Source: Candidatus Aminicenantes bacterium
Lineage (GTDB): Bacteria > Acidobacteriota > Aminicenantia > Aminicenantales > Saccharicenantaceae
Direction: 5' to 3'
DNA: 59,163 nt
NCBI GenBank assembly: GCA_013178315.1
Contig: JABLWX010000025.1
Location: 1 to 59,163 of the forward strand
The notes beneath the pieces were generated by a model. It searched no databases. It worked only from the letters and a program-made list of their open reading frames with translations, and had not been told where the DNA came from. Shown in pieces: positions 15,423-22,962 of the stretch (position 1 is the first letter of the stretch; every line of letters starts with the position of its first letter). The translations under genes and the position numbers were made by a program.

Positions 15423-15444
15423 AGCCTGAAATTTGATTACCCCG

Positions 15445-17238
15445 ATGAAAGAGAAGGCGCCAATTTTTTGGGTGAGCTGCTGCCTGTTGTGGGCAGTGGT
15501 CAGCCAGCTCTCAGGAGCTTCCGACCCCAGGCTATCCGTTTTGATTTCTCCGGCCCGGCTTAGGCCGGAGTCCGATTTCCGGCTGCTGGCCGTGGCCGAG
15601 GAAGAACCGGTTGCTGGCCGGCTGGAAATTGTCTTCCGCCGGGAAGGCGGGGAGAAACTGAAGCTTCGACTTAAAAAAAAGGGAGGAGGTCCGCCCTTCT
15701 GGTCCTGGTGGGAGGGCCGGATTGGGGAACCAGGGCTTTACCGGCTTGAAGTGATTCTGGGCAGGAAAATGGTCGAATCGAAGTTGTTGACGGTGGACTC
15801 CGGTCGGCCAGTTCTCCCGGAAACGAACGTTTTCTGGAAAGCTGAAAAGGACTGGGACCGGGCCCAGGAGAATCTATTTTCCGCCTGGCTGGAGGCCCTG
15901 TTCCTGGAGGCCGGCGAAAAGGATTCCTGGCCCGACCTGAATTCCGTTCTCAACCGACCGGACCATAACTTTCTGCATGATCATCTCGGCCAGAACGAGG
16001 ACGACCTTCTGAGACTGAAGCCGGACTGCGCCGATAATCCGTTTTTTCTCCGGGCTTACTTTGCCTGGAAGATCCGGCTTCCCTTTGGCTTCCATGAGTG
16101 TTCGCGCGGCTCGCTGGCCTCGCCTCCTGCCCCCGGCCGCTGGTTTCATAACGAGCTCCCGGCGGGCGCCGGGAATGAGATTCAAAAATTTGCCCGCATG
16201 ATGCGGCAGGTGATGAACGCGGTTCACTCCGGAACGGGCCGGGTGGCTCTCTCTGAAGAAAACTCCGATTATTATCCCCTGCCACTTCGGCGGGAAGCCC
16301 TCAGACCGGGAACGGTTTATGCCGATCCCTATGGCCACACCCTGGTTGTGGTCCGCTGGGAACCGCAGACGGAAGCCAGGCCGGGAGTCCTGCTGGCGGT
16401 TGACGCCCAGCCCGACGGAACGGTCGGGTTAAAACGGTTCTGGAGAGGAAATTTTATCTTTGTCTCTTCCGAAGTTGTGGGAGAGCCCGGCTTCAAGGCC
16501 TTCAGGCCGATAGCCAGGTCCTCGGGTCGCCTGAGGTTGCTGAGCAACCGGGAAATCCAGCAAAGCCCGGATTATGGGCACTACTCTCTCGAACAGCGGG
16601 GGCTTCGGCCGGAGCTTTTTTATAATAAGATGGAAAGGCTCATCAACCCCCGCCCCCTGGACCCGGAAACGGCCCTGAGAGAATTATTCCAGGCTCTTTA
16701 CGAGCAGCTCCTGGTCAGGGTAGAATCGGTGGAAAACGGTGAAAAGTACATGAGGGCTCATCCGGGGCAGGTGATACCGATGCCCTCCGGGGCGGCGGTT
16801 TTCCTGGCTGCCGGGCCCTGGGAAGATTTCTCGACTCCCAACCGTGATTTGCGGCTGTTGATGGCCATGGATACCATCGATGAATTTCCGGACAAAGTTA
16901 TCACCCACCCGGAAATGTACCGATTGAAACCGTCGGAGAAACCCGAAGAGATCCGGGCCAGGCTGCAGAAGCGGTCAGCCGAACTGGCCCGCAGCCTGAA
17001 TATCTCCTACCCCAGGTCCGACGGCCGGCCACAGGTCCTGACCCTGGAAGAAATTCTGAAAAGGAAAGAAGCCTTCGAAATGGGATATAACCCCAACGAT
17101 TGTCCCGAAATCCGCTGGGGCGCACCGCCGGGTTCCGAGGAAATGGCGACCTGTCGCCGCCGGGCCCCGGCCGGCCAGCGGGCCAAAATGGAGCAGCTCC
17201 GGGTCTGGTTCAAGAAGCGGCTCCACCCGCCCACCTGA
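15445..17238 (+). CDS. Secreted hypothetical protein, putative papain-like/NlpC-P60-related cysteine hydrolase
   Basis: Signal-peptide-like N-terminus; DCAD (Cys codon 16027), YGHTLVV (His 16336) and AVDAQ (Asp 16402) in catalytic-triad order. The function is inferred. Confidence 0.7.
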   Translation: MKEKAPIFWVSCCLLWAVVSQLSGASDPRLSVLISPARLRPESDFRLLAVAEEEPVAGRLEIVFRREGGEKLKLRLKKKGGGPPFWSWWEGRIGEPGLYRLEVILGRKMVESKLLTVDSGRPVLPETNVFWKAEKDWDRAQENLFSAWLEALFLEAGEKDSWPDLNSVLNRPDHNFLHDHLGQNEDDLLRLKPDCADNPFFLRAYFAWKIRLPFGFHECSRGSLASPPAPGRWFHNELPAGAGNEIQKFARMMRQVMNAVHSGTGRVALSEENSDYYPLPLRREALRPGTVYADPYGHTLVVVRWEPQTEARPGVLLAVDAQPDGTVGLKRFWRGNFIFVSSEVVGEPGFKAFRPIARSSGRLRLLSNREIQQSPDYGHYSLEQRGLRPELFYNKMERLINPRPLDPETALRELFQALYEQLLVRVESVENGEKYMRAHPGQVIPMPSGAAVFLAAGPWEDFSTPNRDLRLLMAMDTIDEFPDKVITHPEMYRLKPSEKPEEIRARLQKRSAELARSLNISYPRSDGRPQVLTLEEILKRKEAFEMGYNPNDCPEIRWGAPPGSEEMATCRRRAPAGQRAKMEQLRVWFKKRLHPPT

Positions 17239-17361: not shown

Positions 17362-17664
17362 ATGTCTTTAAAGCTTTATGTGGGTAACTTAAACTACAAG
17401 ACCACCGAGGACAGACTGAAGGAATTATTTTCTCAGTACGGAGAAGTTACCTCAGTTAACATCCTGCAGGGTCGGGGCTTTGGCTTTGTAGAAATGTCAA
17501 CCGAAGAGGGCGCCCAGGAAGCCAAGGACAAGCTCAACGGGACCGAGTTCGACGGCCGCAAGATCATTGTCAATGATGCCAGGCCGAAGGGCGAGAAAAA
17601 AAGCGGCGGCGAACGCCGGTTTGGTTCCGGGCCACAGCAGAGAAGAAATTTCCGCAAATTCTGA
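17362..17664 (+). CDS. RRM-domain RNA-binding protein
   Basis: RNP2 LYVGNL, RNP1 RGFGFVEM, Gly/Arg-rich tail; RBS GAGGAGG. Confidence 0.95.
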   Translation: MSLKLYVGNLNYKTTEDRLKELFSQYGEVTSVNILQGRGFGFVEMSTEEGAQEAKDKLNGTEFDGRKIIVNDARPKGEKKSGGERRFGSGPQQRRNFRKF

Positions 17665-17753: not shown

Positions 17754-17780
17754 GTAAACCTCAGGGTCTTGCTCTCCGTA
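17754..17780 (+). promoter_or_regulatory. Putative ECF-sigma promoter (autoregulatory)
   Basis: GTAAAC-N17-CGTA, matching the AAC...CGT pattern of ECF promoters, 34 nt upstream of the first gene of the ECF operon. Confidence 0.55.
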
Positions 17781-17814
17781 GTTTCTGGTGTAAGCCAGAA
17801 ATGAGGAGAACAAG

Positions 17815-18225
17815 ATGCTACCTGGACTGAAAGCCCTGCTGATAACAGTTGCCGTCCTTCTGACTCTGTCTTCCTGCCTGGTGGTGGCGGTGGAAAAAAC
17901 AGAAAGGGAAGCGGAGGCCGAACTCCAGGGAACCAGGCAGCGGGTTCTTAAATTATCCACCAATTCTTATTCATCTTCATCCCAGCCACACCGTCTGAAA
18001 ATGCTGGTCTACGACCCTGAAGAAGGACAGCTTCTCAGGATTTCCCTGCCTCTCTGGCTGGTCAATAAAGGATTGAATCATGAGGCCGAAAGCCAGGCTC
18101 GTTCTCATGGGCCAGACTTCGAGTTTGATATGAAAGGCTTCAGCCGGGCGGTCCGGGAAATGCCGCCCGGGTTGCTGGCCGAGGTTCTGACTGACCGGGA
18201 AAAGGTGCTTTTATGGCTGGAATAG
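17815..18225 (+). CDS. Hypothetical lipoprotein; copy 1 of the shared C-terminal W[LI]E domain
   Basis: LSSC lipobox (Cys21); RBS GAGGAG; C-terminal LKMLVYD..ISLPLWL..EV..EKVLLWLE. Confidence 0.8.
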   Translation: MLPGLKALLITVAVLLTLSSCLVVAVEKTEREAEAELQGTRQRVLKLSTNSYSSSSQPHRLKMLVYDPEEGQLLRISLPLWLVNKGLNHEAESQARSHGPDFEFDMKGFSRAVREMPPGLLAEVLTDREKVLLWLE

Positions 18226-18271
18226 GAATATACTATGGGCAAAACGACACAGGCTGGGACAGAGTCAGAGG

Positions 18272-18850
18272 ATGGAACAGAAAAATGAACGGACGGTTGA
18301 AACGCAGGTCGAATTTCTGGTTGACCGGGTTAAAAATGGAGACAGGGAAGCTTTCATGAAACTTGTGGCTGCCTATCAGCAGAAGGTATTCATCCTGGCC
18401 TACTCCATGGTCCGGGACAGGGAAGATGCCCTGGACCTGGTCCAGGAAGTTTTCCTCCGGCTGTATGAAAAAATTCAGAGCTACCGGGCTGGTGAAAGCT
18501 TCCAGGCCTGGTTGATGCAGATAGCCAGGAACCTGAGCATAGATTTTCTCCGGCGCAAGAAGACCAGGAAAAAGGACAGCCTGGACGGACTGGACCTGGA
18601 CCGGGCCGACCTGGCTACTGAGCCGGAAGACCCGGACCGGTTTCAGACCGGGGAGTTGATTCACCGGGCGGTCCAGGCCCTGCCGGAAAAACAGCGGCTG
18701 GTGTTCATCCTTCATCATTTTGATGACCTGAAGTACGAGGAAATTGCCGATCGACTGGGGATAGCCGTGGGCACGGTCAAGTCCCTTCATTTCAAGGCCA
18801 TCCAGAACCTGAGGAAGACCCTGGCCCCCAGCCTGGGAGGTGAGCGATGA
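18272..18850 (+). CDS. ECF sigma-70 factor
   Basis: GDREAF, region 2 DLVQEVFL..WLMQIARNLSID and region 4 LPEKQRLVFIL..YEEIA..GTVKS. Confidence 0.95.
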   Translation: MEQKNERTVETQVEFLVDRVKNGDREAFMKLVAAYQQKVFILAYSMVRDREDALDLVQEVFLRLYEKIQSYRAGESFQAWLMQIARNLSIDFLRRKKTRKKDSLDGLDLDRADLATEPEDPDRFQTGELIHRAVQALPEKQRLVFILHHFDDLKYEEIADRLGIAVGTVKSLHFKAIQNLRKTLAPSLGGER

Positions 18851-19638
18851 AGGCCTGCAAGAGATATAAGAAGGAATGGCCGGCTTTCATCGGCGGCCAG
18901 CTTTCTCAGGGTAGAATCGAGGAAATGGCTGCCCATTTAAAAATTTGCGCGGCCTGCCGGGCCGAGCTGGAAGAAACCGGGAAATTGATCTCGCTGGCCG
19001 CGGGCTTCAAAGAAGAGCTGAAAGAAGTCATGGCCACGGTGGACTGGGAAGCGCTCCCCGTAGAAATAACAGATAAAGTCTGGGAACGAAAGGAGCGGAC
19101 AGCTCCGGCATCTGTTCCCTCAGGCTGGCGGCTCTGGAAATGGCAGCCGGTGGTGGCCGGTTTATTCCTGGGGTTGCTTTTGGGCGGGGCCCTGACTTTC
19201 CTGGTCTTGAAGCCGCAGAAACCCGGTACTCTGGCGGCCCGCCAGGAAGCAGGTATTTCCCTGCCGGCGGACCTGGTGGAGCGGGTCGACCTGGCCCTGG
19301 CCCGTAGGGAGACCATAGATTACCTGGAACGCAGCCAGTATCTACTGCTCGACCTTCTTCAAAACGGCCAGCCCGGGGAATCGGGCCTTGTCCGCCAGGA
19401 CAGGATCCAGCAGCTCCTGACCGAGAAGAAATACCTCAACAACCAGCTCGACGACTGGCGGCTGATGAAGGCCCGGGCCATCTGCGACCAGATTGAGCTT
19501 CTTTTCCTCGAGCTCAGCCAGCTGAGCCCCGAGCTGTCGGCCCGGGAACTCGAGAAGGTCCGGGAGATGGTCGAAGAAAAACAGCTACTGCTGAAAATAA
19601 ACCTGGTCAAGAAAGAACTCCAGCAAGGAGAGGTCTGA
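18847..19638 (+). CDS. Membrane-bound zinc-binding anti-sigma factor (ZAS)
   Basis: HLKICAAC (HxxxCxxC), a single TM and an extracytoplasmic helical domain; ATGA overlap with the sigma gene. Confidence 0.88.
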   Translation: MKACKRYKKEWPAFIGGQLSQGRIEEMAAHLKICAACRAELEETGKLISLAAGFKEELKEVMATVDWEALPVEITDKVWERKERTAPASVPSGWRLWKWQPVVAGLFLGLLLGGALTFLVLKPQKPGTLAARQEAGISLPADLVERVDLALARRETIDYLERSQYLLLDLLQNGQPGESGLVRQDRIQQLLTEKKYLNNQLDDWRLMKARAICDQIELLFLELSQLSPELSARELEKVREMVEEKQLLLKINLVKKELQQGEV

Positions 19639-19639
19639 G

Positions 19640-20497
19640 GTGAAGAGAAATATGACGGCGATTCTGATCATAGCACTGCTCCTGTCCCTTGGAGCCGGCG
19701 GGTCGGTCTCCGGCCAGGCGCGGGGGGGTGAGGACGAAAGACTTCTGCAGGAAGCCAAGCTCCTGATCTTTGACAAGAACTGGGTCGAGGCCGAAAAGAA
19801 ATTGTCAGGCCTCATCAATAACCACCCGCAGAGCAGTTATTATTCCCAGGCCCTCTTTTATCTCGGCAAGTGCCAGTCCGAACAGGCCGGGAAAGAGAAG
19901 GCGGCCCTTGATTCCTTCCAGGCTTTTCTGAAAAGGCCGGACCGGCCCCAGGGCCTGGTGGAAGAGGCCGAGATAGCCATCATCGACCTGGCCTTCAGGC
20001 TTTTCAGCCAGGGACAGAAAGAGTACAGCCGCTTGCTCCTGGACCGGCTGTCCAGTCCCAACCGGGTGGTCAGGTACTACGCGGCCATGAAGATGAGTTA
20101 CCTGAAGGATAAGGACCTGGCCGGCCAGGCCCTGCCGGTGCTGCTCAGGTTAATAGAAACGGAAAAAGACCAGGAGCTGGTGGACCGGGCTAGGATTGCC
20201 GTCCTCAGAATTTCTCCCGAGGCCCTGAAAGATGTTCCCGACCGGCCGGGAAGGGAAGGGCTGCGTCTTCTCAAAATCAGGGTCTATGAAAAGGGGAAGA
20301 AGGTCCCCAGTCTGTCAATAAATCTGCCGCTGGCTCTGGCTGACCTGGCCATTCAGGCCATGCCTGAAGAAGAAAAAGCCAGGATGAAGGAAAAAGGTTA
20401 CGACCTCAACCGTATCATTTCCGACCTGGCCAGGGCCAAAGAGAAACTGGTCCGGATAGAAGAAGATGGTAACATCATCGAAATCTGGATTGAATAA
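19640..20497 (+). CDS. Exported TPR + HEAT-repeat protein; copy 2 of the shared W[LI]E domain
   Basis: Signal peptide, TPR-like ALFYLGKC, HEAT-like VVRYYAAM, and C-terminal LKIRVYE..INLPLAL..IEIWIE. Confidence 0.8.
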   Translation: MKRNMTAILIIALLLSLGAGGSVSGQARGGEDERLLQEAKLLIFDKNWVEAEKKLSGLINNHPQSSYYSQALFYLGKCQSEQAGKEKAALDSFQAFLKRPDRPQGLVEEAEIAIIDLAFRLFSQGQKEYSRLLLDRLSSPNRVVRYYAAMKMSYLKDKDLAGQALPVLLRLIETEKDQELVDRARIAVLRISPEALKDVPDRPGREGLRLLKIRVYEKGKKVPSLSINLPLALADLAIQAMPEEEKARMKEKGYDLNRIISDLARAKEKLVRIEEDGNIIEIWIE

Positions 20498-20524
20498 ATA
20501 ATAATCAGAGAAAGGAGAAAAGAT

Positions 20525-20911
20525 ATGAAAAAAGTAATCATGATCACGGTAATGCTTCTTGGCCTGTTGTTCCTGACCTCCAGCCTGCTGCCGGCCGGTG
20601 ACCGGGACGATTACCAGGTTATCAAGAAGGCTGTCCAGGAGACCTCGAAGGTCGAGCCAGCCCAGGAAGTTAAATGGTTCAAGGTGCTGGTTACGGACAC
20701 CAAGACCGGGAAAGAGAGAGTCAAGATTACCATGCCCATCGCCCTGGTGGAGATCTTCGCCCGTTGTGCCGATAGCAAAGAGGTTAAGCTGGGGCGTGAT
20801 GGCTGCAGCCTGAACCTGCCGGAATTGCTGGCCGAGCTCAAGAAGGTCGGGCCGCTGGCCATCATTGAAGTCAACGAGGAAGACGAGACGGTCAAGGTCT
20901 GGCTGGAATAG
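20525..20911 (+). CDS. Exported hypothetical protein; copy 3 of the shared W[LI]E domain
   Basis: MKK signal peptide; RBS AAGGAG; FKVLVTD..ITMPIAL..EV..ETVKVWLE. Confidence 0.82.
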   Translation: MKKVIMITVMLLGLLFLTSSLLPAGDRDDYQVIKKAVQETSKVEPAQEVKWFKVLVTDTKTGKERVKITMPIALVEIFARCADSKEVKLGRDGCSLNLPELLAELKKVGPLAIIEVNEEDETVKVWLE

Positions 20912-20933
20912 TTGATTCGGAAGAGATAACCGG

Positions 20934-20963
20934 AAAGGGCTTCCTGCGGGGAGCCCTTTTTTT
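20934..20963 (+). terminator. Rho-independent terminator of the ECF operon
   Basis: AAAGGGCTTCC-TGCG-GGGAGCCCTTT stem-loop with a 7-T run. Confidence 0.85.
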
Positions 20964-21033
20964 ATGGCCTTCGGGTTTCTGAGGAAAAGAGGGCTGGAGG
21001 GAATCGGGCCACCGGAAACCGCTCCGAACTTAA

Positions 21034-21103: not shown

Positions 21104-22219
21104 ATGGCAAAATATCGGCTGGCAATTTTGCCCGGAGACGGGATTGGTAAAGAAGTCGTCGAGGCGGCCATGATCGTCCTCGAGCGGATGAATCTGGACG
21201 CAGAGTACATTTATGGCGATATTGGTTGGGAGTTCTGGTGCAAGGAGGGGAATGCCCTTCCCGACCGGACCATCAAGCTCTTGAAGGAAACCGACGCCTG
21301 CCTGTTCGGGGCCATAACTTCCAAGCCCAAGGAAGATGCGGCCAGGGAACTGGCCCCGGAACTGCAGGGAAAAGGCCTGTCCTATGTCAGCCCGATCGTC
21401 AAGCTGCGGCAGCTATTTGACCTTTACATCAACCTCAGGCCCTGCAAGGCTTACCCGGGCAACCCGCTAAATTACAAGGAAGGTATAGACCTGGTGATTT
21501 TCAGGGAAAATACCGAGGGCAGCTATGCCGGGGTGGAGTTCTATCCGCTGCCGGACAAGGTCAGGGAAGCTCTTATGCTTCATCCCAAGATGAAAGATTT
21601 TAAGGATGTGCCGGCCGAGGAAATAGCCGTCTCCACCAGGATCATGACCAGGAAGGGTTGCGAACGCATCGTCCGGGCTGCCTTTGAGTATGCCCGCAAG
21701 TACAAGCGGAAATCGGTCACCCTGGTGGAAAAGCCCAATGTCCTGCGGGAAACGGGCGGGCTGATGCTGAGGGTAGCTCGCCAGGTGGCGACCGAGTTTC
21801 CGGACATTAAGTTCTACGAAGCCAACGTCGATGCCATGTGCATGTGGTTGCTGAAGAACCCGTACGATTATGACGTCCTGGTGGCCGAAAACCTGTTTGG
21901 CGATATCATCTCGGACCTGGCGGCCCAGCTGGTCGGTGGACTGGGTTTTGCCTGTGCCGGCAATATCGGCGATAAGTACGCGGTCTTTGAACCCACCCAT
22001 GGTTCGGCTCCCAAGTACACCGGGATGTACAAGGTCAACCCCATAGCCACCCTCCTGGCGGCCAAGATGATGCTGGACTGGCTGGGGGAAACGGATAAGG
22101 CTGCCGTTCTGGAACAGGCCATTGCCGAGGTGATTAAAGAAGGCAAGGTCAGGACCTACGACCTCGGCGGTTCGGCCAAGACCCTGGACGTGGCCCGGGC
22201 CGTGGCCGAAAAGCTCTGA
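21104..22219 (+). CDS. Isocitrate/isopropylmalate (beta-decarboxylating) dehydrogenase family protein
   Basis: LPGDGIG, LRQLFDLYINLRP, RENTEG, NLFGDIISD and FEPTHGSAP motifs. Substrate unresolved. Confidence 0.92.
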   Translation: MAKYRLAILPGDGIGKEVVEAAMIVLERMNLDAEYIYGDIGWEFWCKEGNALPDRTIKLLKETDACLFGAITSKPKEDAARELAPELQGKGLSYVSPIVKLRQLFDLYINLRPCKAYPGNPLNYKEGIDLVIFRENTEGSYAGVEFYPLPDKVREALMLHPKMKDFKDVPAEEIAVSTRIMTRKGCERIVRAAFEYARKYKRKSVTLVEKPNVLRETGGLMLRVARQVATEFPDIKFYEANVDAMCMWLLKNPYDYDVLVAENLFGDIISDLAAQLVGGLGFACAGNIGDKYAVFEPTHGSAPKYTGMYKVNPIATLLAAKMMLDWLGETDKAAVLEQAIAEVIKEGKVRTYDLGGSAKTLDVARAVAEKL

Positions 22220-22269: not shown

Positions 22270-22962
22270 ATGCTGCTGCTGGCCGTTGATACCACCACCC
22301 GCTTCGGCTCGGTGGCTGTGGTTGGAAATGGCGAAGTCCTGTCTGAGGTGAACTATGTTTCACCTTCCTCTCATTCGCGCCAGGTCTTCCGGGCAGTGGA
22401 TGAAGCGCTCCGGGTGGCCGGCCTGAAATTCGATGGCCTGGAAGGATTGGCCGTGGCGGCCGGACCCGGTTCTTTTACGGGGATCAGGATAGGGCTGAGC
22501 CTGGTTAAGGCCCTGGCCCTGGCCTCGGGCCGCCCGCTGGCGGCCGTTTCGGCCCTGGAATCCCTGGCCCTGAAGCTGCTGGCTCCCGGGGTCGGATTAA
22601 TGGTGCCGATGATCGATGCCCGCAAGGGAGAGGTTTTTGCCGGCGCTTATCGGCCTGACGGAGTGGGGTTTAAAGAGCTGGTTCCGGCCGGTGCCTATCT
22701 CCCCGCGGATTTTCTGGACCGGTTGCCTTCGGCCGGCCCGGCAACTTTTATCGGAACCGGGGCCAGGCTTTACCGCTCCATGATTGAAGACAGGCTTGGA
22801 ACGCGGGCCATTTTTTCCAGCCGAAGTCTTCACATCGCGGCTGAAGTTGGTCTGATCGGCGAAAAGCTTCTGGCCGGTGGGCGGGGGCTCAGCCCGGCCG
22901 CGCTTCAACCGATTTATTATCGTCAATCCCAGGCCGAGGAGAAAAAAACTGCCAGAGAATAA
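22270..22962 (+). CDS. tsaB: t6A37 biosynthesis protein TsaB
   Basis: LLAVDT, GPGSFTGIRIG, IDARKGEV and P.Y.RQSQAE motifs. Confidence 0.95.
   Translation: MLLLAVDTTTRFGSVAVVGNGEVLSEVNYVSPSSHSRQVFRAVDEALRVAGLKFDGLEGLAVAAGPGSFTGIRIGLSLVKALALASGRPLAAVSALESLALKLLAPGVGLMVPMIDARKGEVFAGAYRPDGVGFKELVPAGAYLPADFLDRLPSAGPATFIGTGARLYRSMIEDRLGTRAIFSSRSLHIAAEVGLIGEKLLAGGRGLSPAALQPIYYRQSQAEEKKTARE

Follow-up and report, generated by a model that had tools for sequence, protein, structure and literature searches.

An extracytoplasmic function sigma/anti-sigma operon of Aminicenantia with one C-terminal domain shared by three predicted exported proteins

Sigma factors of the extracytoplasmic function (ECF) type are among the commonest signalling devices of bacteria, and for most of their groups it is obscure what is signalled and which proteins partner the anti-sigma factor on the outside. 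In Escherichia coli, the rpoE-rseA-rseB(-rseC) operon encodes an autoregulated ECF sigma factor, a single-pass anti-sigma factor, and a co-transcribed periplasmic protein that modulates the anti-sigma factor. In Bacteroidota, operons composed of an ECF sigma factor, an anti-sigma factor and a DUF4252 lipoprotein encode small exported or lipid-anchored proteins without known function. ECF sigma/anti-sigma operons with periplasmic accessory proteins are well known as a kind, and the locus described here is one of them: five open reading frames (ORFs) at positions 17815-20911, all on the plus strand, of a stretch of 59,163 nucleotides (contig JABLWX010000025.1 of assembly GCA_013178315.1, hereafter the window) from a Candidatus Aminicenantes bacterium, class Aminicenantia, phylum Acidobacteriota. 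Near-identical proteins in public records are assigned to Candidatus Saccharicenans or Aminicenantes. The genes encode, in this order, a lipoprotein, an ECF sigma factor, a ZAS-type anti-sigma factor, an exported TPR/HEAT protein and a small exported protein, followed by a terminator, exactly as a first-pass annotation of the window had laid them out. The lipoprotein, the TPR/HEAT protein and the small protein end in one and the same domain, and the locus thereby presents a clean, phylum-wide case of a sigma/anti-sigma pair combined with a TPR/HEAT protein and with a domain unnamed in public family libraries.

The likeness to rpoE-rseA-rseB consists in an apparently autoregulated ECF sigma factor, a single-pass anti-sigma factor next to it, and then a co-transcribed protein that is predicted to be periplasmic. 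However, the anti-sigma factor is here a ZAS protein that bears its own outer domain, a TPR/HEAT scaffold takes the accessory place, and one extra domain is spread over two or three separate proteins. No accessory protein matches the RseB/MucB family in Pfam or NCBIfam, and the likeness is one of gene position and presumed role. With the DUF4252 operons, the locus shares the presence of small exported or lipid-anchored proteins in an ECF operon; DUF4252 (PF14060) is not among the 25 families listed at E<=1 for 101 tails of the shared domain, and has no match in the source genome at E<=0.01. Within Acidobacteriota, operons of a sigma factor, an anti-sigma factor and a TPR/long-HEAT protein, of which no account was found in the literature, have a sigma factor, an anti-sigma periplasmic domain and a TPR (YfiO/BamD-like) N-terminus homologous to those of the window. 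Their TPR/long-HEAT proteins contain 2 to 9 HEAT_2 units and lack the terminal domain, whereas in the TPR/HEAT protein of the window the HEAT part is short and the domain follows it as a cap, with free domain copies encoded alongside.

The three accessory proteins terminate in WLE, WIE and WLE, in agreement with the first-pass annotation, which had proposed that all of them stop at W[LI]E and that their C-termini are copies of one domain. Pairwise BLASTP among the three proteins or their tails was not significant (E 1.2, no alignment, and 0.49), and phmmer, run on the source genome with the small protein as query, retrieved only that query and neither of the other two copies. Orthologues were therefore collected for a profile comparison: DNA was fetched around 40 loci of the class, and profiles were built from the last 80 residues of each family. 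Aligned with hhalign, the tails matched end to end, and significantly for all three pairs: small protein against TPR/HEAT protein with a probability of 98.6% (E 5.8e-16, 79 columns), small protein against lipoprotein with 98.4% (E 9.7e-15, 77 columns), and TPR/HEAT protein against lipoprotein with 94.7% (E 6e-8, 75 columns), compared to 0.2% (E 0.32, 2 columns) for a control alignment of the small-protein tail with the anti-sigma periplasmic domain. A separate hhalign run on the tails gave the same picture. In the fetched class loci, searches with single sequences already link the three families to one another, at E-values as low as 6e-10, and a hidden Markov model (HMM) of the domain, run against the source genome (93.7% complete), finds exactly the three copies of the operon and nothing else up to E 10. 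On this profile evidence, the three tails are one homologous domain of about 78 residues.

The domain is deployed in three ways, as had been suggested: lipid-anchored, on a scaffold, and free. The lipoprotein (17815-18225, plus strand, 136 residues) carries its copy at about 17992-18222 (domain HMM E 6.6e-20) and has a lipobox, LSSC; all 20 sequences of the lipoprotein type retain its cysteine. The TPR/HEAT protein (19640-20497, plus strand, 285 residues; domain at about 20261-20494, E 5.7e-26) is matched in Pfam by TPR_6 (3e-6), with 27.9 bits over a cut-off of 26.3, and by HEAT_2 (1e-4), with 22.9 bits under a cut-off of 27.7; HEAT_2 arrays are strong in its homologues outside the class. A search of PDB sequences with this protein gave no significant match. 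The small protein (20525-20911, plus strand, 128 residues; domain at about 20675-20908, E 8.7e-30) consists of a signal peptide, a short conserved DDYQVIKKAV stretch and the shared domain. Signal peptides were judged by a crude hydrophobicity rule together with inspection of the N-termini, and those of the TPR/HEAT protein and the small protein, read by eye, are signal-peptide-like. Neither the lipoprotein nor the small protein has a Pfam name, and NCBIfam names none of the accessory proteins beyond sub-threshold YbgF/BamD-like TPR matches.

The 101 aligned tails share an invariant tryptophan, and a proline and a leucine are each conserved in 90% or more. The last three residues read W-[LFIV]-E in all 41 small proteins and W-[IV]-[ED] in 37 of 40 TPR proteins; among the lipoproteins, 20 of 20 show W-x-x. 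A pair of cysteines in the small protein, to which the first-pass annotation had drawn attention, is indeed present here (Cys81 and Cys94), but both are kept in only 20 of 41 orthologues.

The domain had also been thought to be undescribed, and this has been borne out by the searches made. Pfam gives no match to the three tails alone and no family for the 101 tails, the commonest name matching 3 of 101 (E 0.034); no NCBIfam model matches the domain; and no PDB sequence is significant against the domain profile, the best match (0.028) being a designed TIM barrel. In the literature, no account was found of the domain or the operon, of the outer domain of the anti-sigma factor, of a TPR/HEAT protein being coupled to such a pair across the phylum, or of one domain being used free, anchored, fused and in tandem. 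Relatives of the domain are abundant, however unnamed: a search of 1.84 billion cluster representatives with the domain profile returned 1547 at E<=0.001 and 340 at E<=1e-10, and a protein atlas gave only unnamed clusters, from Aminicenantota, Acidobacteriota and Gemmatimonadota, and no structural model. Among the best 150 of the 1547 relatives, 80 have one copy and 70 have two tandem copies, no more than 8 residues separate the end of the last copy from the C-terminus in 145, and the N-terminus is signal-peptide-like in 129 (crude rule); source records label such proteins hypothetical. Among 120 matches listed, TPR orthologues are the only longer fused forms. In an alignment of tandem-domain proteins (A2), positions 80-120 drew four distinct Roadblock/LC7 dynein light-chain chains from the PDB (E 0.24-0.65, none significant); this repetition suggests a lead on the fold only.

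The first-pass annotation had further pointed to similar tails in cytoplasmic SHOCT-like proteins linked to Psp/Lia stress loci. The SHOCT-like element has been described as a two-helix membrane anchor attached to various globular domains of intracellular proteins (PMC11237479). One relative of the domain, P0207, which lacks a signal peptide, does join the two, with two domain copies flanking a PF22746 SHOCT-like helix pair (3.3e-9). This was the case in 1 of 20 scanned representatives, which had been chosen as atypical, and the N-terminus is signal-peptide-like, by the crude rule, in 129 of the best 150 relatives; the proposed likeness is supported only in part. PF22746 matches none of the three proteins of the window or their tails, and is not among the families listed for the 101 tails. 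Unlike SHOCT-like proteins, the three are predicted to be exported, and their shared domain is a separate globular module; it would thus be one globular partner of the SHOCT-like element, and not that element itself. In another locus of Acidobacteriota (L106:1605-5218), the gene after a sigma/anti-sigma pair encodes an exported DUF4097 Toastrack protein (4e-10) and is convergent with a pair of tandem-domain genes; a protein cluster like this Toastrack protein was present in 4 of the loci examined. Together, the Toastrack protein of L106 and the SHOCT-like element of P0207 hint at a link of the domain to Toastrack-type envelope stress modules.

The sigma factor and the N-terminus of the anti-sigma factor are ordinary members of their families. 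The sigma factor (18272-18850, plus strand, 192 residues) is matched by Sigma70_r2 (6.9e-20) and Sigma70_r4_2 (4.8e-18), with no region 3 or region 1 family among 11 listed Pfam matches, and TIGR02937 of NCBIfam assigns it to the ECF superfamily (119.7 bits, cut-off 42.9); no NCBIfam equivalog model reaches its cut-off. With regions 2 and 4 only, a length of about 200 residues, a co-transcribed anti-sigma factor and a predicted autoregulatory AAC...CGT promoter, it is, judged by its sequence, an ECF (group IV) sigma-70 factor. No group with a TPR/HEAT neighbour was found in the 2021 ECF classification (PMC7826278), whose supplementary group descriptions may name the group of this sigma factor. 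In a related operon, the sigma gene reads as two ORFs of 86 and 102 residues (L050:2365-2905), which may reflect a frameshift or an assembly error.

The anti-sigma factor (18847-19638, plus strand, 263 residues) is matched by zf-HC2 (1.6e-5; 25.3 bits, cut-off 22.2). Within this match lies HLKICAAC at residue 30 (H30-x3-C-x2-C), the N-terminal pattern by which ZAS proteins are recognized in sequence. Its sole hydrophobic stretch, residues 101-121, is transmembrane-like, which would place about 140 residues outside the membrane. This extracytoplasmic domain of about 140 residues is probably helical. It is conserved (alignment A6), no family was found for it, and a search of PDB sequences gave no significant match.

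The first-pass annotation had expected the gene neighbourhood to be conserved, and it is: the genes for the sigma factor, the anti-sigma factor, the domain-bearing TPR protein and the small protein stand in the same order in 39 of 40 fetched Aminicenantia loci, the TPR gene coming directly after the anti-sigma gene, and the arrangement recurs outside the class. In the remaining locus (L041 / L138, G149:C3), the small-protein gene (domain HMM 2e-26) stands alone, and genes for a sigma factor, an anti-sigma factor or a TPR protein are absent for about 6 kb around it. The small protein was found in 101 of 150 sampled class genomes. An upstream lipoprotein copy is part of 19 of 39 related operons and varies even within a genus, being present in L051-L056 and absent from L057 and L059. 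The domain also co-occurs with this type of ECF sigma/anti-sigma pair, as had been anticipated. Among the 27 class genomes of a phylum sample, 15 carry both the domain and the anti-sigma outer domain, 3 the anti-sigma domain only, 9 neither, and none the domain only. Related genomes are not independent cases in any of these counts.

The genes of the operon are closely packed: sigma and anti-sigma genes overlap by 4 bases, 1 base separates the anti-sigma gene from the TPR/HEAT gene, and 27 bases separate the latter from the small gene. An ECF-type promoter-like site (AAC, 17 bases, CGT) is located at 17755-17781 on the plus strand, 33 bases 5' of the lipoprotein start. The corresponding motif, T[GA]AACCTTT...CGTA[AG], in which AAC and CGT are always 17 bases apart, precedes the first operon gene (the lipoprotein gene where present, else the sigma gene) in 34 of 40 operons. 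Such a motif is the usual signature of an autoregulated ECF promoter, and the operon is probably autoregulated. The site of the window is the best match of the promoter matrix in its own genome (score 21.4), being itself 1 of the 34 training sites, and the scan of this genome showed no other convincing target. Two weaker matches lie on the minus strand: C67:7636 (19.3) is 110 bases 5' of the gene for an exported repeat protein of 356 residues, and C107:7385 (17.3) is 40 bases 5' of the gene for a 414-residue protein whose N-terminus appears by eye to be of the HlyD (membrane-fusion) type. The genes behind these two sites are possible regulon members. An intrinsic terminator is predicted at about 20932-20965 on the plus strand, where a hairpin of 13 pairs has a run of U behind it (-26.3 kcal/mol, z -2.4); this hairpin is absent from the listing of a simple terminator scan.

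Outside the class, the anti-sigma outer domain was found in 69 of 301 phylum genomes (67 of 298 without three unpublished ones), and proteins with tandem domain copies in 114 of 301 (111 of 298). All out-of-class loci with the anti-sigma outer domain, the unpublished genomes being left out, amount to 50, and they fall into several arrangements. In 17, a TPR/HEAT gene lies directly downstream of the anti-sigma gene; its product is terminated by the domain in 16 and cut by the contig end in one. Six of these 17 loci have a further small copy downstream and 4 have a copy upstream of the sigma gene, the complete five-gene layout being present in L139, L141 and L152, and cut by the contig end in L140. 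Since further domain copies occur up- and downstream in these loci, the five-gene layout is older than the class. In 13 loci, a longer TPR protein with a HEAT array takes the place of the domain-bearing one, and HEAT_2 was detected in 10 of 10 scanned domain-less TPR/long-HEAT proteins (E 6e-25 to 3e-90). In 5 loci, all of one family, a divergent pair of tandem-domain genes is found instead, and in 15 nothing further was detected. Tandem-domain genes are mostly paired as adjacent paralogues (36 loci), and clustering of their neighbourhoods revealed no conserved neighbour except the second paralogue. At about 48 distinct tandem-domain loci, an immediately divergent sigma/anti-sigma pair occurs 7 times, and in a few cases a sigma gene is 1-5 kb away. 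A functional link of the domain to this type of sigma/anti-sigma pair, also in distant lineages and in other gene arrangements, is supported by these patterns of gene content.

The explanation favoured here, at a probability of about 0.4, is that the TPR/HEAT protein may be the periplasmic partner of the anti-sigma factor, and that its terminal domain might be a self-association module recruiting the free and the lipid-anchored copies. In such a scheme, the ECF sigma factor would be held at the membrane by the single-pass ZAS anti-sigma factor with its system-specific helical outer domain. The TPR/HEAT protein, encoded in an RseB-like position, would act as the periplasmic partner of the anti-sigma factor, and the W-x-E-terminated domain of about 78 residues would serve as a homotypic association module. 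Through this domain, the TPR/HEAT protein could draw in the small free copy, as well as the lipid-anchored one in operons that encode it, and the resulting membrane-tethered periplasmic complex would set how easily the anti-sigma factor releases the sigma factor. The role of the TPR/HEAT protein is proposed because its gene position matches that of RseB, by analogy with the E. coli system. Self-association is proposed because relatives often carry two copies, either in one chain or in adjacent genes, and because the domain copies of the source genome are confined to one operon. Throughout, we infer which proteins are in physical contact, which way control runs and what kind of signal is involved. 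A complex prediction for the tails of the TPR/HEAT protein and the small protein gave scores of 0.01 and 0.00, which speak neither for nor against binding.

Several observations weigh against this explanation. Of 39 related operons, 20 lack the lipoprotein copy; 28 of the 50 out-of-class anti-sigma loci show no domain copy within 5 kb; and of the 16 operons outside the class with a domain-bearing TPR protein, 10 show no small copy over the same distance. As the small copy is so often unseen outside the class, a complex of three parts cannot be obligatory. Moreover, most of the roughly 48 tandem-domain loci have no sigma gene within 6 kb, some tandem-domain genes have an ECF-like promoter of their own, which fits an output of the response as well as a sensor, and the contacts between the operon proteins are presumed ones. 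A more far-reaching version is put forward with considerable doubt, namely that the domain might be a new periplasmic self-association module that builds a heteromeric co-sensor, gating the anti-sigma factor via its helical outer domain. If it were true, such a co-sensor of scaffold, free and lipid-anchored subunits would represent a way of building a signalling system that has no characterised counterpart, and Acidobacteriota would employ it across the phylum with the domain single, fused or in tandem.

The main rival explanation places the domain proteins at the other end of the pathway. They would be envelope-protective or envelope-remodelling products that are induced by the sigma factor, and in Aminicenantia they would ride on the autoregulated operon. 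In five loci of one Acidobacteriota family (L161, L162, L170, L171 and L172), that is, in all five of its loci, two successive AAC...CGT promoter-like motifs face the divergent tandem-domain genes, and a third motif, CTAACC...CGTC, faces the sigma gene, so that the tandem-domain genes have motifs separate from that of the sigma gene. The spacers of these motifs vary, but their boxes are conserved. Elsewhere, 7 of 36 other tandem-domain genes have a matrix score of at least 12 within 200 bases of the ORF start, compared to a background of 0.6% of 2078 windows. The usual lack of a nearby sigma gene at tandem-domain loci is what would be expected of regulon members, and as no other convincing matrix target was seen in the source genome, the products of the operon may themselves be the main output. 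However, the five loci with divergent motifs are close relatives and not five independent cases, and the matrix was trained on a single class, the site of the window included, so that its scores in other classes are rough. Furthermore, the TPR/HEAT gene follows the anti-sigma gene after 1 base and keeps this position across the phylum even where the domain is lacking, which is typical of a regulatory partner. An exclusive choice is not called for, since partners encoded in autoregulated operons are also products of the response, and the output explanation, possible though on the whole improbable, is compatible with a sensor role.

Alternatively, the TPR/HEAT protein might be a co-sensor whose domain, like the free copies, binds a small envelope-derived ligand, with the free copies acting as competitors or buffers. 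The conservation of the domain, with its invariant tryptophan and near-invariant proline and leucine, would suit a binding site, as would the fixed free C-terminus after W-x-E in all 41 small tails (W-x-[ED] in 37 of 40 TPR tails) and the fact that 145 of the best 150 relatives have the domain at their very end. Self-association is, however, the simpler explanation for tandem copies and paired genes, and ligand binding is considered unlikely. The position of a domain of about 78 residues at the C-terminal extreme of proteins with unrelated N-termini and signal peptides also recalls a sorting or secretion tag, with the logic of type IX secretion cargo. This is very improbable and was rejected: the small protein is almost nothing but the domain and leaves no cargo to be sorted, a second, internal copy is present in 70 of the best 150 relatives, and no Pfam or NCBIfam sorting-domain model matches. 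A resemblance of the tails by chance or shared composition, for which only the failed BLASTP comparisons would speak, has practically no probability left and is excluded by the profile-profile matches over 75-79 columns, the cross-family matches in other genomes, and the retrieval of all three copies, and of nothing else, by one HMM in the source genome.

The free, lipid-anchored, scaffold-fused and tandem forms of the domain amount to a natural experiment on the addition of accessory proteins to an anti-sigma factor, and the locus offers a delimited candidate promoter, few enough genes for heterologous reconstitution, and what may be a new domain family for the databases. The hosts are uncultured bacteria of anaerobic sludge, of sediment and of the subsurface, and the interest is therefore basic rather than applied.

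Upstream of the operon, the window contains an ORF of 601 residues (15433-17238, plus strand) with a signal-peptide- or membrane-anchor-like N-terminus and no Pfam match at E<=0.001. The stretch from this ORF to the promoter of the operon encodes, at 17362-17664 on the plus strand, a small RNA-binding protein of the RRM type (RRM_1, 5.9e-23). This gene, as well as the two genes 3' of the operon, does not look linked to it; the latter encode an isocitrate/isopropylmalate dehydrogenase (21104-22219) and a TsaB-like protein (22270-22962).

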